DNA of 64,000 nucleotides from Candidatus Magasanikiibacteriota bacterium (GCA_963840935.1 CAWJAS010000001.1:706790-770789), one strand, 5' to 3'. Positions 5,646-11,856 are shown, counted from the stretch's first letter. Program-made: numbers and translations. Notes: generated from the sequence alone by a model not told the origin.

Positions 5646-5669
5646 TTTGTATACACAAGTGTATACAAA
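5646..5669. promoter_or_regulatory. Operator-like inverted repeat TTTGTATACA-N4-TGTATACAAA (copy 1 of 3)
   Basis: A 10-bp inverted repeat with a 4-bp spacer (caag). Exact copies lie at 5715..5738 and 5830..5853. Confidence 0.5.
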
Positions 5670-5714: not shown

Positions 5715-5738
5715 TTTGTATACACAAGTGTATACAAA
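5715..5738. promoter_or_regulatory. Operator-like inverted repeat (copy 2 of 3)
   Basis: Identical 24-mer TTTGTATACACAAGTGTATACAAA. Confidence 0.5.
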
Positions 5739-5820: not shown

Positions 5821-6180
5821 ATGATAGAGTTTGTATACACAAGTGTATACAAACTTATGCCTGTTGACCCAAAAAATCAAAAAAACGAAGGCAATTCAAA
5901 AGAGATAATCAGGTTATCGGTTTCTGAAGCCGCTAAATTATTTGGCGTCAATTCGCAAACAATCAGAAGGGCCATACAGGCGCAAGAAATCACATACGCT
6001 GTTGTGGCCGGAAGATACAAAATCAATTTTGAAAGTTTGGTAAAATGGTCGCAAAGGCACACCACAATCAAAAATAAAATGGCACAACGCGGAATCGGGC
6101 AATATGTGGAAAGGTGGAAAATCAAAAATCCGATGTATTCGCCAAATCCCAAATCAGTCAAAAAATCACCAAACAAATAA
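5821..6180 (+). CDS. Small helix-turn-helix DNA-binding protein (excisionase/MerR-like HTH_17 type). The true start is probably the ATG at 5857.
   Basis: SVSEAAKLFGVNSQTIRRAIQAQEITYAVVAGRYKINFESLVKW is an excisionase-type HTH. The first 12 codons of the listed ORF are the operator repeat itself, so a downstream start (MPVDPKNQ...) is more plausible. Confidence 0.6.
   Translation: MIEFVYTSVYKLMPVDPKNQKNEGNSKEIIRLSVSEAAKLFGVNSQTIRRAIQAQEITYAVVAGRYKINFESLVKWSQRHTTIKNKMAQRGIGQYVERWKIKNPMYSPNPKSVKKSPNK
5830..5853. promoter_or_regulatory. Operator-like inverted repeat (copy 3 of 3), overlapping the -10/+1 of a putative promoter (TTGACA 5802-5807, 17-nt spacer, TAGAGT 5825-5830)
   Basis: Identical 24-mer placed immediately after a sigma70-like -35/-10 pair and just upstream of or inside the 5' end of the HTH gene. 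This is a classic autorepression geometry. Confidence 0.45.
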
Positions 6181-6252: not shown

Positions 6253-8002
6253 ATGCACAAAAAAATATATAAAGCGCTTCATAGGCACTACAAAAACAAA
6301 TATGAAGGCATATACAAAAATGCTAAAAAACTTTTTGTATTTGATTTAATTTTACTTGCCGGTTCTTTGATTCTTCTTGGCGCTTCTTTGTTCTTCTTTT
6401 TTTGGAAACCAACCATTGTGGACTTGGTTGATGTTAATTTTAGCGTACACGCGGAAAGAATCATGGCCGGAGACGAAATTAACATTTCAATTGATTACAA
6501 AAATAGAAGCAAACATAAATTGGAAGATGTTATTTTGGCCGTTCACTTACCAGCCGGCTTTTTAATTGACAGGCAAAAAACACCGGTCGAAATCTTTTCA
6601 TTGAATTCAACAGCCGACATCGGCTCGCTTGAAGCCGGAGCAACAGGTAAAATTGTTATTTATGGAAGATATTTTGCCGCTCCTTTAACAGACGAAAAAA
6701 TAACCGCCTATTTTTCGTATAGGCCGGAAGACAAAAAAAATAAGGAACAAAAAATTGCCGGCGCATATATAAAAACAGTCGGATCAAACCTGGCGATTGA
6801 AATAGGCTCACCAACTTCTTCTTTACCAGGATATAATGTGCCATTCACAATCACCCTCCAAAATAATGGGCTTTTACCCATGGAAAATATTAATGTCAAC
6901 GCGAATAATTTGGAGATTGTTTTTAATAAGCCCGAAATCAGCGAAAAATATTTCTATCGGCCCAAAGGAGCAGATAAAACTTTCCGGCACATTACGTGCG
7001 CCATCGACTGCTGGCGACTATTTGTTTTCTATTTTTGCCACCGCCATAATAAACAATACGCCGATTGTTATTGCGGAATTGCAAAAACAAATTCAATCAA
7101 TTTATCCAAAAATTAATAGCGGAATTAATCTTCAATTTGATAAACCTTATGCCGACGGTTCTGATACTATTCCCTTGCGAGTATATTGGAACAATTCCGG
7201 GGACCGCGAAGTGGCCGAACCTCGACTGCGGTTTGTGTTTACGCCGGGTGTGGTTGATTTAAGCGCAACGGCCAGAGAAAACAAATTAACAATTTCGGGA
7301 AACGAACTTATCGCCGATAAAAAAACCAGAACGTCTTTTTTTGACGGTTCACCCGGCGCTTCGGATGAATTTGTTATTAATCTAAAATTACTTCCATTTT
7401 TCAAAACCGACGGTCAAAAAACATTAGAGATAAAAGTAGTCGCCGAAGCGGTATTACCGGAAAATGTCGAACAAAAAATTACAACGGAAAGCTCGGAAAA
7501 AATATCAATTAATCTTGCCACGCAAATTAATTGGCATATTAAACCGGTCTATTACACGGACGAAGGCGATCAACTTGGCCGTGGCCCCCTGCCTCCGGTC
7601 GTCGGTGAAGAAACAAAATATTGGGTGTTTGTCGAAATAAATAACGGCCTTAATCCAATAGAAAATAATTATTTTAAGGCGGAACTTGGCGATGGAATAA
7701 AATTTACCGGCAAAGAAAGTGTTACAATTGGCTCCAAATTTACTTATAATAACGACAGCAATTCAGTATCATGGAGCCACCCATCTGTTCCGGCAAACAG
7801 TTCCGTTGGGTTATATTTTGAAGTAGTGGTAACACCAAACGCGTCGCAAGCGGGTAAAAATATAATATTAATAAAAAACGCGGAATATCGCGCCAAGGAC
7901 AGCGCTGTCAATAAGGAAATAAACCTAAAATACGGCCAAATCAACAACACACTCTCCAAAAGCGACCGCGGTTCTGAATACAAATCTCAAGTTCTGCCGT
8001 AA
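6253..8002 (+). CDS. Membrane-anchored cell-surface repeat-domain protein (DUF11/CARDB-like beta domains). It is interrupted by a frameshift in an A5 run at about 6944-6948, giving ORFs 6253..7116 and 6836..8002.
   Basis: N-terminal TM helix (LILLAGSLILLGASLFFFFW). Frame 1 is protein-like to ...FNKPEISEK, then junk with many Cys. Frame 2 is protein-like from ...SIGPKEQIKLSGTLRAPSTAGDYLF onward. The switch happens exactly at the homopolymer gcgAAAAAtat. Confidence 0.5.
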
Positions 8003-8060: not shown

Positions 8061-9233
8061 TTAGAAAAACTTTAATACCGAATAAATTGTCGCGACAATA
8101 AAAAATAAAATAACAGGTATGGCGACTAACCAAAAACTTTTTAAACCATACCTTCGGCCATCCAAATCCCCTTTTTTGCGCGCTTGATAACAAATCATCA
8201 CAACCATTAACGATTCAATGCCAATAAATAATCCGCCAACAAAATCAAGTACCGCCACAAAACTTCTGAATCCGAACAAAAATAATAGAATCGGAACTGT
8301 AACAACGGCAAAATCGGCAATATGCCTGCTTATTTTGTGGTCCCACATCAAAGATTGCTTCAAGGCTAACCCCATACCCATAAAACAAGTCGCCATGGCC
8401 ATCACAGCAAAGGAATTGGCAATTATCGCGAATGGACGGCCAAAAGCGTTGCCAAGCCCGATTGTGGCCACTTCGGTGGTGTTCAAGCCAAAATAGCCGA
8501 CCACAGCTAAAGAAAATAACACATAGACGGCTGTTGGTATCAAAGCGCCAATAATAATCGCTTTTTTAAATCGTTTCTCCGAACCCGGCAAAACAGCATG
8601 CGCTTCAGCTATTGATGGCGTGGCGTGTAAGGCGAACAAAATTACGCCGAATGGTAAAAAGAAATTACCAACCTCAATAAAATCAAAATTTATCGGTTTG
8701 ATATGAGGCAATAAAAACAAAGAAAGCCCAACAATCAAAATAATGACCGATAAGCTCAAAACTCGATCGACTTTTTTTATGGAATCAAGCCCTTGCCAAA
8801 TAAAAAAACTGCCTAATGACCAAAAAAACACGCTCCACCACATTGGCGCTCCGCCAAAAATGGCCGATAGTGCGTGCCCTTCACCGATAATATACGCAAG
8901 TAACGAACCAAATCCGGCAAATACAATAACAAAACTAAGCAAAATTTTTGCAAACCGGCCAAGATATTTGCCAGCCAAACCGGGTAGTTGAAAACTCTGT
9001 TTGGTTCGCACCACAATATCCCCAAGCATTAAATTAAGAAGCAATATTACCAACCCCCAAATTACTATAAGCAACAAGCCAATTACAAGACCGGAGCGAG
9101 CGATAACATAAGGCAAACCTAGAACACCGGCACCAATGGTCATTCCGGTGATCATAAACACAGCTTCACTAGTGCTGGCCGGTTTTTTAAAAATACCCTT
9201 GTGAGAAACTATGGGCTGATCTATTTTCATCAT
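8061..9233 (-). CDS. Amino-acid permease (APC-superfamily / aromatic-amino-acid-permease-like transporter), about 11 TM helices
   Basis: SEAVFMITGMTIGAGVLGLPYVIARSGL... is a typical N-terminal signature of amino-acid transporter family proteins. It is very hydrophobic and 390 aa long. Confidence 0.7.
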   Translation of the reverse strand: MMKIDQPIVSHKGIFKKPASTSEAVFMITGMTIGAGVLGLPYVIARSGLVIGLLLIVIWGLVILLLNLMLGDIVVRTKQSFQLPGLAGKYLGRFAKILLSFVIVFAGFGSLLAYIIGEGHALSAIFGGAPMWWSVFFWSLGSFFIWQGLDSIKKVDRVLSLSVIILIVGLSLFLLPHIKPINFDFIEVGNFFLPFGVILFALHATPSIAEAHAVLPGSEKRFKKAIIIGALIPTAVYVLFSLAVVGYFGLNTTEVATIGLGNAFGRPFAIIANSFAVMAMATCFMGMGLALKQSLMWDHKISRHIADFAVVTVPILLFLFGFRSFVAVLDFVGGLFIGIESLMVVMICYQARKKGDLDGRRYGLKSFWLVAIPVILFFIVATIYSVLKFF

Positions 9234-9412
9234 ATATTTATATGGACATATTATAGCATATTATTTGTATAAATCATTGTGTGTATGGCCATGCAATACT
9301 TTTGTTCTCGTGGCTACAACTATTTACCGCAATTATCAAAAAAAAAAGGCCCCCGGCGATATGTAATTATACCGCAAGGGGCAGAAAAAATGTGCTTTCA
9401 TCTGCTCTGGCC

Positions 9413-10285
9413 CTATTCCTGATGATACAGGGCAAACAGACGGTTCATGACCTCGCTAAAATCCATCAAAGGAAAAATATTGCGCGCATATTCTCGCATA
9501 ACCAGGAACTGTCTCGCAACCTTGGTCATGTGGTTTCTCTCCCTCTCGCTTCCCGGATCAAATTCAACATCCCAGCGCAGAGGAACAGCCCTGCCAATCA
9601 TTCCCCAACGGAAATTGCCATTGGCTTTCATGATTCTTAAGCAGGCGTGGAAATCCTCCATACCGGCCAGCGGAACCTCGCCAAATTCCTCGGTTCTAAC
9701 GGTCCTGCCGATGCCATTGCATTCCGGGGCGAAGCCACCCACGCCAAGAAGGACTTCTGAATTCCAAATGGCAGCGGTGTTTTGGACGACGTTCCATTGC
9801 GGTCTTTCCCACCAGCGTTCACGGAGAAATCCGGCTACTGCCAGATTCCTACGCTCGATGAAATTGAGCGCCTGAGATATTCTTAATCCATCCACATCGA
9901 TTTCCGGCGACCACATCATAACATAATTACCGGGATAACGCTCCTCGGCGATACGAATGCCGTCGTTAAGGGCGTTTCCGCTACCGGGGTTTCTACCCCA
10001 ATTCTCGCAAGTCAGCGGGATGAGAGAACCGTCAGTGATTTCATTGGGGAATGTTTCCCTAAGTGCCGCTATGGTCGGCGTCACTCCGTCTTCCGCATTC
10101 TCAGCCATAGGACTTTTGGGGTCCCCATTGGTCACGACGACAACCGCCCGGACCACTTCGGAAAACCGCAAGATGTTTCTGAGCGGACGCGCCACCTTGT
10201 TGGCAAACAGAACCGGATCAAAACTCTTTCCTTGTCCACCTGTTCCGGCCTGAAAAGACCGGGTTATAACTGTTAACGCAGTCAT
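9413..10285 (-). CDS. Hypothetical protein with GT-A-fold/nucleotide-diphospho-sugar-transferase-like features. Its GC content (about 50%) is markedly higher than its neighbours (about 35%).
   Basis: 290-aa ORF with protein-like composition. It has a DxD-like motif (EIDVDG) and a VVVVTNGDP beta-strand motif. The function call is weak. It is followed at 9339-9372 by a GC hairpin plus T10 terminator. Confidence 0.4.
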   Translation of the reverse strand: MTALTVITRSFQAGTGGQGKSFDPVLFANKVARPLRNILRFSEVVRAVVVVTNGDPKSPMAENAEDGVTPTIAALRETFPNEITDGSLIPLTCENWGRNPGSGNALNDGIRIAEERYPGNYVMMWSPEIDVDGLRISQALNFIERRNLAVAGFLRERWWERPQWNVVQNTAAIWNSEVLLGVGGFAPECNGIGRTVRTEEFGEVPLAGMEDFHACLRIMKANGNFRWGMIGRAVPLRWDVEFDPGSERERNHMTKVARQFLVMREYARNIFPLMDFSEVMNRLFALYHQE

Positions 10286-10410
10286 TCAACCTCCTTTTTC
10301 ATGATTTTTAAAGAACAGTTAAAGAAATAAAATTTTAACTAGCAAGATTAACACAAAAAAGGCCCTTTGTCAAGCCCGTGAGGTGAATATTGAGTGTTAA
10401 TTTTTATCGG

Positions 10411-11604
10411 CTAGTTCTTTATTCTTTGCGACCGCCTTTGTAGTATGAGTTCTTTATAAAATAAATATAACTCATTATCTTGTTCATCTTCACTCCAATT
10501 CATCATTGCGCGAGCCGTAATATCACCATGTTCCTTAAATGAGGATATATCAGACTCTTGTGTCGCACCAACTTCGGCTCCATAATAAATAATGGGTGGC
10601 TGTTTTTGCGCAAACTGTATCTTGGCAGCTTCCTTTAGTTTATTTTTATCCTGGCCTGTTTCAAAAAGAAATCTGTTCATGTCATGATTGTCCAAAAATG
10701 TCGGCAAAAAATAATCAGCTGGATATTTTTTGTAATGACGCTTTAGTTTCCATTGGAGTAGCCAGCGTGGCCGAAAAAACGACGGCTTGGCAATATACTG
10801 TTTCATTAACTTCTGAAATTCAAAATCCAGCACACCATCCAACTCACCAATATACTCCTTTAACAAAGCATCAGAAATTGATCCAGATAACCATTTGATA
10901 ATTTTTCCTTTTATCTGAATTGTTCTTAGGTCAGCAAACTTCACACCGGAAATCCAAGCTTCTCCAATCAGAACCGCTTCGGGATATTCTTTCTTGATTT
11001 CACTTCTAAAAAATTTCCAAAACAAATGCTTTGGGCCGACAACATGATCCAATCTGAAACCGTCTATTCCTTGGCTTAACCAATATTTTGCGGAATTGAC
11101 GATGTGATCTCTTGCCGGCTCAAAATCCAAATTTATTTTAGGCAATTCACGAACTTTTAAAAAACACAGGTATTGATCCGGCCATTTAGTAAAATGAAAC
11201 CAATTTCTATATTGACTATCCTTGTTTTTCTGAGCGTCCAAAAAATACGGATGAAAGCTTGACATGTGGTTTGGCACAAAATCCATTAAAATTTTTATTT
11301 TTCTTCTGTGTGCCTCATCAATTAATTTTTTTAATATCGATAAAGAACCGAAACGGTGATCAACAGCAAAAAAATCGGTAATGTGATAACCGTGATATTC
11401 GCTTGTCACGTTGAACGGACTAAGCCAAATAGTGTTTATGCCGAGGTCTTTCAAATAATCAAGGCGCTCAATAACACCGGTGAGATTCCCGCCACAAAAA
11501 GACGGAGCCTTGCAATTTAACGGTTTCTCGTCTTCAAGTTTGCCTCTGGAGAACCGGTCAATAAAAATTTGATAAATAATTGCGTCTTGGAACCAGGAAG
11601 TCAT
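10411..11604 (-). CDS. Alpha-amylase family glycoside hydrolase (GH13 catalytic domain)
   Basis: GH13 regions are present: DAIIYQIFIDRF, GINTIWLSPF, ILMDFVPNH, GIDGFRLDHV, GEAW, FLDNHD. Confidence 0.85.
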   Translation of the reverse strand: MTSWFQDAIIYQIFIDRFSRGKLEDEKPLNCKAPSFCGGNLTGVIERLDYLKDLGINTIWLSPFNVTSEYHGYHITDFFAVDHRFGSLSILKKLIDEAHRRKIKILMDFVPNHMSSFHPYFLDAQKNKDSQYRNWFHFTKWPDQYLCFLKVRELPKINLDFEPARDHIVNSAKYWLSQGIDGFRLDHVVGPKHLFWKFFRSEIKKEYPEAVLIGEAWISGVKFADLRTIQIKGKIIKWLSGSISDALLKEYIGELDGVLDFEFQKLMKQYIAKPSFFRPRWLLQWKLKRHYKKYPADYFLPTFLDNHDMNRFLFETGQDKNKLKEAAKIQFAQKQPPIIYYGAEVGATQESDISSFKEHGDITARAMMNWSEDEQDNELYLFYKELILQRRSQRIKN

Positions 11605-11708
11605 ATTTGTACGCCAAGGGATTCGTCACGGGATGAACCCGTGACGCCCTGAGTTTATCTCAGGGCGAACAAAAAAAATAAAGAATTATATTAAACACAG
11701 TATATATG

Positions 11709-11782
11709 TGCACGCCAAGGGATTCGAACCCCTGACCCCCTCGGTGTAAACGAGGTGCTCTAACCAACTGAGCTAGGCGTGC
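11709..11782 (-). tRNA. tRNA-Val (anticodon TAC)
   Basis: The reverse complement folds as GCACGCC / GCTC-AGTTGGTTA-GAGC / CCTCG-TTTACAC-CGAGG / AGGGG-TTCGAAT-CCCTT / GGCGTGC-A. The anticodon loop has UAC at positions 34-36. Confidence 0.85.
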
Positions 11783-11856
11783 AATTCCGCCGAATCTTAA
11801 TATAAATATAGTATAAAGTCAATAGTATATACCCGATTCACTCCATTAATTTTTCT

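Follow-up and report, generated by a model that had tools for sequence, protein, structure and literature searches.

Behind a tRNA-Val gene in the genome of a Candidatus Magasanikiibacteriota bacterium (GCA_963840935.1), a copy of the 3' end of the tRNA is found just ahead of the start codon of an amylase gene, and two hairpins lie between the tRNA and its copy. Does this copy mark the attachment site of an integrase, or did the tRNA end and its neighbouring genes come together in some other way? The question is raised by a sequence-only reading of the window (the whole stretch of DNA analysed, 64,000 nucleotides in length), which took the copy for the classic footprint of an integrase att site and the tRNA for a past or present integration hotspot. 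The tRNA gene, the copy and the gene that follows are placed as listed here.

11708..11782, minus strand: functional tRNA-Val(UAC), allele 'a' (ARAGORN, anticodon TAC; Rfam RF00005, 69 bits)
11608..11625, minus strand: orphan copy of the tRNA-Val 3' end, CGAATCCCTTGGCGTaCA, which reads from 11625 to 11608 in tRNA sense
10411..11604, minus strand: GH13 alpha-amylase-family gene, cyclomaltodextrinase-like (Pfam PF00128, E = 2e-60)

The tRNA gene at 11708-11782 does not encode CCA. The 15-mer ACGCCAAGGGATTCG occurs exactly at 11611-11625 and at 11712-11726, as had been read from the sequence alone with coordinates one base too low, and no further copies with up to two mismatches were found in the 64-kb window. 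The full copy, CGAATCCCTTGGCGTaCA, has 18 nt with one mismatch to the tRNA-Val 3' end, lies 83 nt downstream of the end of the tRNA and comprises the last four T-loop bases, the 3' strand of the T-stem, the 3' strand of the acceptor and the discriminator. It is followed by AAT and then by the ATG of the amylase ORF, a gap of 3 nt. A weaker similarity (18/23), interrupted by an indel of 10 nt, extends into the region of T-stem, variable loop and anticodon stem. No other tRNA or tmRNA gene in the window has such a 3'-end copy, and the 3' half of the second tRNA-Val in the window differs from that of the gene at 11708-11782. The fragment has no 5' acceptor strand, and neither a covariance model nor ARAGORN detects a cloverleaf in it; over the copy and spacer region, ARAGORN and Rfam return the genuine tRNA only and no tRNA-like RNA, in the window as in the relative L003 described below. 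Similarly, Rfam at a permissive threshold finds nothing besides the tRNA itself in the intergenic regions of the window and L003. The 18-nt repeat, which lies in the 3' trailer of the functional gene for tRNA-Val(UAC), represents the orphaned 3' portion of a tRNA-Val gene, and its first origin could be either the displaced end of an old tRNA-targeted integration or a decayed second tRNA-Val. That it is a chance similarity beside ordinary intergenic palindromes is practically negligible as an explanation: nothing but the shortness of the repeat speaks for it, and it is refuted by the frequency of the 15-mer (0.09 occurrences expected by chance, two observed), by the presence of the same copy in four genomes and by compensatory changes in the hairpins (p ~1e-5, see below).

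An exact-match scan found the identical 74-nt tRNA-Val(UAC) in 18 species-level genomes, the neighbouring proteins being only 40-55% identical. All 18 are CPR/Patescibacteria (Candidatus Magasanikbacteria, Buchananbacteria, Parcubacteria and MAGs labelled 'uncultured Gammaproteobacteria'); several of these MAGs bear the latter label yet have Magasanikbacteria-type synteny. Logan short-read contigs of the same or close strains stop inside tRNA-Val just past the anticodon (L004:10894, L005:5888 and L127:3143). Strain-level variation was set aside as the cause in favour of a simpler one: these contig ends are probably a break in the assembly graph caused by a tRNA that is common to many co-occurring CPR organisms.

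The relatives compared are CPR bacteria of the Candidatus Magasanikbacteria, with L126 the closest and L003 more distant. They conserve a gene order of EamA, a GH-like gene (GH334), tRNA-Val, an aromatic-amino-acid-type permease and a 581-aa DUF11 protein. GH334 of L126 is 85% identical to that of the window in amino acids, and the DNA of L126 is ~80% identical to that of the window; for GH334 and permease, the identity to the window is 65-78% in L003, L010, L027, L128 and L136, and ~50% in L009, L013, L018 and L026. Between tRNA-Val and the permease, the following arrangements were found.

L013 and L018: permease straight after the tRNA
L009 and L010: 150-nt structured spacer B, tRNA-end copy, canonical terminator and permease promoter, without amylase
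L003: spacer B (131 nt), exact 18-nt copy, CAT, amylase ATG, hyp290, permease
Window: spacer B' (twin hairpins), copy, amylase, hyp290, permease
L126: B' (homologous twin hairpins), CGAATCCCTT, AACACCCA-CCA, terminator, permease, without amylase or hyp290
L027: tRNA-Val allele 'b' without a fragment; only a homologue of hyp290 (73%)
L128-L131 and L136: allele b, then an SDR gene within 5-9 nt and other cargo

This other version of the cargo consists of the SDR gene plus a 215-aa gene. Since the contents behind tRNA-Val differ across relatives in this way, the slot is hypervariable, and the suggestion that the tRNA marks a hotspot of recombination and gene content is borne out. The junction is modular, two left modules being combined with three right modules in the four combinations seen. 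In L009, the repeat runs 10 nt past the tRNA end into the trailer, which gives 28 nt in common. The fragment in L126 ends in AACACCCA, the acceptor 3' strand of allele b, though the adjacent tRNA is allele a, and in distant relatives, allele a seems to have occupied the locus ancestrally. Two further observations concern the same slot. Within the window's own clade, L027, L128 and L136 hold a quite different tRNA-Val allele at this locus, and in L026 (2554-3946) ~1.4 kb of different sequence, with an opposite-strand ORF, is found between tRNA-Val and the permease as one more variant of the cargo.

The amylase and hyp290 of the window fall within a segment that can be delimited by comparison with L003 and L126.

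9215..11615, minus strand: laterally exchanged segment of ~2.4 kb (~96% DNA identity to L003; missing from L126)
11616..11625, minus strand: 10-nt T-arm core CGAATCCCTT, the left junction, where L126 homology ends and L003 homology starts
9413..10285, minus strand: hyp290, glycosyltransferase-like with a predicted GT-A fold (AlphaFold pLDDT 94; Foldseek)
9338..9382, minus strand: intrinsic terminator after hyp290 (GCCCC...GGGGGC, then T10)
8061..9233, minus strand: aromatic-amino-acid-type permease (Pfam, NCBIfam and synteny), which holds the right crossover

From the a-type acceptor end GGCGTACA, the segment runs through the amylase gene, hyp290 and the terminator, continues over a spacer of 75 nt and the promoter of the permease, and ends ~15-20 nt into the permease ORF. 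DNA identity between the window and L003 is ~96% from the copy (11625) to ~9260 and 65-75% outside. In protein sequence, the amylase is 94.7% and hyp290 98.3% identical, against 66% for GH334, 74% for the permease, 54% for FolD and 40% for EamA. Relative to L126, 2,355 bp of the window (11615-9261) replace 41 bp in which the acceptor end and a terminator lie, which is the indel polymorphism that had been proposed as a check on the integration hotspot. The window is homologous to L126 as far as the end of CGAATCCCTT and to L003 from the start of CGAATCCCTT onward, and thus the core is the left crossover. On the other side, 24 of the 25 three-way informative sites from 9275 to ~9218 match L003 only, and those below ~9212-9215 mostly match L126 only; this switch at ~9212-9218 puts the right crossover within homologous sequence, ~15-20 nt past the start of the permease ORF. 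The polymorphism therefore has its left edge exactly at the repeat core and its right edge in the permease ORF, without a repeat. The permease is a backbone gene, directly next after tRNA-Val in most relatives. With an L126-like backbone (tRNA, twin-hairpin spacer, and permease onward) and an L003-like cassette, the window is, on the evidence of these alignments, a recombinant. At the core CGAATCCCTT, modules of DNA were joined in different combinations in this Candidatus Magasanikbacteria clade.

An obvious candidate for the agent of such joining is a tyrosine integrase, since lost or encoded elsewhere, that acted at the T-loop core of tRNA-Val. The fragment would then be the displaced attR-type end of the tRNA, and the spacer and amylase cassette would be the remnants of successive tandem integrations. 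According to the description of Islander (PMC4383910), integrase-borne islands and prophages leave a regenerated tRNA and a displaced 3' fragment, and a direct repeat of the tRNA 3' end below an intact tRNA is the defining mark used in mapping islands. A displaced 3' fragment in direct orientation beside an intact tRNA is present in the window as well. Further likenesses are the extent of the direct copy (from T-loop to 3' end), the crossover in the T-arm (mycobacteriophage Ms6 has a T-loop attB; PMC1762012), the reuse of the T-arm core junction with different partners and the variable cargo of the slot. In tRNA-dependent lysogeny, demonstrated by experiment for a complete prophage that has its integrase (Guerrero-Bustamante and Hatfull, 2024; PMC10865867), cores of ~10 bp lie in the tRNA gene, the tRNA is not rebuilt, orphan fragments are left and a complete replacement tRNA of the same isotype adjoins; such a route could explain the intact allele-a tRNA beside an allele-b fragment in L126. 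The locus differs from that system in that nothing phage-like is left and allele a is seemingly the ancestral resident. The two junctions are repeated in two lineages, and the left one falls exactly in the T-loop/T-stem, the usual target of integrases; this would also fit a site-specific enzyme encoded elsewhere in the genome. That one core joins two left to three right modules, together with the precedent of tRNA-dependent lysogeny, makes such an enzyme a serious rival explanation, though on balance we consider an att scar unlikely.

Several features of the locus weigh against it. Pfam finds no recombinase or integrase among the window genes from 6.2 to 16 kb, and precomputed Pfam domains include no integrase at the syntenic loci of L003, L126, L027 and L128. 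That hyp290 might be a hidden recombinase was rejected on its predicted GT-A fold. Only 83 nt separate the tRNA from the fragment and the acquired 2.4 kb is distal to the fragment, whereas an island would lie between the repeats. At the far end of the cassette, a second tRNA-end fragment was not significant in local alignments against shuffles (p = 0.03-0.9), and the boundary there is a homologous crossover within the coding sequence of a backbone gene. A weak CTTGGtCGTaCACA in L003 was considered as a distal repeat and dropped, as its score does not exceed those of shuffles. Viral contigs gave no match to the tRNA end, to the B spacer, to the B' hairpin and core or to the amylase. A metagenome scan with VCGAATCCCTTGGCGTRCA gave 92 matches, all by chance and inside high-GC coding sequence, and none near a tRNA. 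With cargo outside the repeats, no integrase at the locus, no distal repeat and a homologous far junction, the picture of an att island does not fit; the classic integrase footprint of the sequence-only reading is not supported, and the region from 9.4 to 11.6 kb, which had been offered as the integrated segment, lies beyond the fragment.

The explanation that we prefer as a whole, and hold to be probable to a modest degree, combines a microhomology junction at a tRNA fragment, a cassette exchange anchored by homology, and hairpins that are older than the exchange and under selection. Incoming linear DNA would have recombined with homology on the permease side as its anchor, and its other end would have been resolved at the tRNA-derived microhomology CGAATCCCTT. 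The process would thus be homology-facilitated illegitimate recombination (HFIR) and not the insertion of an island catalysed by an integrase. The fragment itself would probably be the displaced end of an earlier tRNA-targeted event. HFIR of transforming DNA is a described mechanism (PMC3240628), and its pattern is matched here by extended homology at the right junction, by a left junction at the 10-nt CGAATCCCTT present in both parental types and by the loss of 41 bp of the recipient. The cargo genes all code for carbohydrate enzymes. The locus differs from that description in that the process is deduced from sequence and in the low identity of the anchor. The homologous anchor of the window lineage is only ~72-75% identical to that of L003, the sole known cassette-bearing relative; such identity is poor for RecA, so that either the true donor must have been closer or both genomes were supplied by a third party.

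The locus offers a case, at base-pair resolution, of uncultured, genome-reduced CPR bacteria exchanging metabolic genes, here for a GH13 amylase and a GT-A-like enzyme, across lineages of ~70% identity. One end of the recombination was provided by what is left of a tRNA gene, and machinery of a mobile element is not visible at the locus. It also serves as a caution that a repeated tRNA end need not denote an integrase att site with an adjoining island. Recombination scars and hotspots linked to tRNA genes are a known kind (PMC4383910, PMC9897764), and the details of this one are new for CPR bacteria. Van der Gulik et al. (2023; PMC9897764) ascribe fragments of tRNA genes in prokaryotes to genetic elements that integrated. 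The present fragment is likewise a partial, non-canonical tRNA sequence beside a canonical gene; however, its shortness keeps it from being mis-called as a tRNA, and the structured insertions that accompany it are conserved.

A purely local origin of the repeat from the 3' region of tRNA-Val, whether by partial duplication in tandem, by slippage or by unequal crossing-over, and without any mobile or foreign DNA, is quite improbable. Repeated tRNA-Tyr 3' ends downstream of tyrT of E. coli were reportedly described by Egan and Landy in 1978; there, one whole unit is copied in tandem. As at tyrT, the tRNA 3' end is duplicated in its own trailer. The 28 nt in common in L009, which reach 10 nt into the trailer, the similarity that runs towards the anticodon stem in the window and the lack of a recombinase at the locus would all agree with a local event. 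However, the acceptor strand of the L126 fragment comes from another tRNA-Val allele than that of the adjacent gene, which already strains this reading. Further, unlike at tyrT, the spacers vary between lineages (those of the window and L126 are unrelated to those of L003, L010 and L009), and the DNA to the right of the core in the window is of foreign ancestry.

What, then, are the hairpins between the tRNA and its copy? They form part of the B' spacer.

11645..11667, minus strand: hairpin 2, CGCCCTGAG-ATAAA-CTCAGGGCG in tRNA sense
11624..11646, minus strand: hairpin 1, CGTCACGGG-TTCAT-CCCGTGACG in tRNA sense
11671..11678, no strand assigned: run of A8 on the plus strand, T8 on the tRNA-sense strand (from the sequence)

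Both hairpins have perfect 9-bp stems and 5-nt loops, and the CG at 11645-11646 is common to the two; the tandem perfect stem-loops and the A8 run had been seen from the sequence alone. Each hairpin is single-copy in the 64-kb window and in the loci searched (L001-L033 and L126-L137). A role as terminator of the tRNA was rejected: the hairpins have no U-tract downstream, the T8 run precedes them in tRNA sense and so is not a terminator tail, and no terminator-like site was called at 11600-11700. Seven positions distinguish the window from L126 in the 55-nt stretch that runs from GTTCG to CGAATCCCTT. Six of the seven make up three compensatory pairs (C-G <-> U-A), two in hairpin 2 and one in hairpin 1, out of 16 pairs in total; the seventh difference opens a terminal pair, both loops are invariant and no internal pair is broken. 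In simulation, at least three compensatory pairs arise from seven random substitutions with p = 1.1e-5, the covariation being that of a single pairwise comparison, since the window and L126 are the two sequences that carry the twin hairpins. The RNAs also fold far better than shuffles (z = -5.5 and -7.1). The presence of the hairpins in L126 without the cassette, and the compensatory changes in them, indicate that the hairpins are older than the cassette and were kept for their pairing. They did not, then, come in with the amylase. By these comparisons, the twin hairpins are a conserved structured element evidently under selection for pairing, and most likely an RNA structure in the tRNA-Val co-transcript.

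Spacer B' of the window and L126 is unrelated in sequence to spacer B of L003, L010 and L009. In the B spacers, the direct copy is paired over 12-13 bp with an inverted one of the T-arm/acceptor segment; this closing stem encloses GC-rich hairpins, the sequences of which vary between genomes, and is followed by a 4-nt 3' overhang. The L126 RNA folds into a Y-shaped junction with GGUUCG/CGAAUC as the closing pair, and the closing stem of the window fragment has only 5 bp. A mirror image of the scar was observed in L128 (7995-8110) and also in L129-L135. There, the 5' part of tRNA-Val is present as a fragment of allele b, in which CTTTCGGGTGTTTAGCTCAGTT is followed by a twin hairpin of 30 nt inserted in the D-loop, TGGGCCCGAGGCCCA/TCAGCCTTGGGCTGA, and this by GGTTAGAGC. 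The 5' fragment precedes the intact allele-b tRNA by ~100 nt and is situated behind the promoter. Partial tRNA copies with paired hairpin insertions in a loop are thus found on both sides of tRNA-Val in the clade.

The position of the amylase start raises the matter of its expression, for which two promoter-like sites are relevant.

11794..11822, minus strand: promoter-like site for the tRNA, TTGACT-17-TAAGAT (consensus scan; same hexamers in L003 and L126)
11685..11712, minus strand: candidate internal promoter TGCACA-16-TATAAT (10/12; consensus match only)

The -35 hexamer of the candidate internal promoter is made from the 3' end of the tRNA, and its start would fall just upstream of the hairpins. 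This candidate lies within a 19-nt AT-rich stretch that is absent in L126, and L003 has no site here. In L003, no promoter-like or terminator-like site was found from the tRNA to the amylase, which suggests co-transcription of the two. Under our preferred reading of a microhomology-joined exchange, the amylase of the window would owe its expression either to the tRNA promoter, by read-through, or to the window-specific TGCACA-16-TATAAT site. By either route, the amylase mRNA would now have the hairpins and the tRNA-end copy as its 5' leader, in which the hairpins may act as a folding insulator or as a stabilising 5' structure. In the thrU-tufB operon of E. coli, tRNA and mRNA are co-transcribed and the protein gene is read from the tRNA promoter; by analogy, a protein gene downstream of tRNA-Val may be transcribed from the tRNA promoter here.

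In the clade, several protein genes start 3-17 nt past the end of a tRNA or of a tRNA-like sequence, and neither a promoter nor a terminator nor a Shine-Dalgarno intervenes. These are the permease at L013:4557-4576 (17 nt), the SDR genes at L128:8186-8194 and L136:3669-3680 (5-9 nt), and the amylase at 11602-11608 of the window and in L003 (3 nt). Such arrangements suggest that the clade may routinely co-transcribe tRNA and mRNA, and, together with the covarying hairpins of the trailer, that this co-transcription matters in these genomes.

The hairpins and the tRNA-like end might together be a functional element in their own right, namely a tRNA-mimicking leader that is cut by tRNA-processing enzymes, so that a nearly leaderless amylase mRNA would be released from a co-transcript of the tRNA promoter, or the amylase regulated in some other way. 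Such an element would accommodate the ATG 3 nt past the tRNA-like end in both cassette genomes, where no Shine-Dalgarno is present, the stretch free of promoter-like and terminator-like sites in L003, the structural selection on the hairpins, the 4-nt overhang after the closing stem in L003, L010 and L009, and the other genes of the clade that begin shortly past a tRNA end. However, L126 has the twin hairpins and no amylase, and L003 has another spacer before the same gene. In the window, the fragment is without a 5' acceptor partner and closes with a stem of only 5 bp, and ARAGORN and Rfam find no tRNA-like RNA there. We hold this explanation to be very unlikely indeed.

A related proposal, itself very unlikely, is that the slot is a docking site for cassettes that is independent of integrases, at which cargo would be driven by the tRNA promoter and released nearly leaderless by 3'-processing of the tRNA. 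If this were true, promoterless cargo lacking a Shine-Dalgarno would be joined a few nt past a tRNA or tRNA-like end, and the twin hairpins, or the 110-nt element with its 12-13-bp T-arm-like stem, would be a module for recognition or insulation as well as a recombination site.

The exchanged genes and their neighbours allow some further observations. All NCBIfam matches of the amylase are below their cut-offs; its N-terminus is conserved in homologues and it has no Shine-Dalgarno. Homologues in L001 (74%) and L002 (69%) were rejected as comparison loci, being neither syntenic nor in a tRNA-Val context. Past these few CPR relatives (69-74%), the nearest homologues of the amylase with a named source (55-60%) are labelled as Thermoplasmatales, Woesearchaeota and other archaea, most matches being without a source name. 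This hints that the GH13 subfamily of the amylase may be shared between domains.

For hyp290, no sequence match was found in Pfam, NCBIfam or the PDB. A Foldseek search with the predicted structure returned RmlT, TarS, TarP and K4CP (best E = 2.5e-7). The family has 62 members (clusters), and all those with a named source are CPR. The gene at 9413-10285 had been described as foreign by its GC content, which is indeed raised (0.52 against 0.43 for the window). However, hyp290 homologues are GC-richer than their hosts in all four of the other loci examined, so that the excess is largely a trait of the family and does not serve as evidence of transfer.

Beyond the permease, the overlapping ORFs 6253-7116 and 6836-8002 of the window correspond to one DUF11/CLIPPER-like gene of 577-582 aa in L003, L126, L027 and L128; the split in the window is a frameshift or a sequencing error. 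Further along, a 24-nt palindrome, TTTGTATACACAAGTGTATACAAA, occurs in three exact copies (5646-5669, 5715-5738 and 5830-5853), in or beside the intergenic region between a sigma-70-type gene and an HTH_17 gene, the third copy overlapping the start of the HTH_17 ORF (5821). It is 100% conserved in L126 despite an overall genome identity of ~80%, and from its sequence and setting the trio looks like a set of operator sites.
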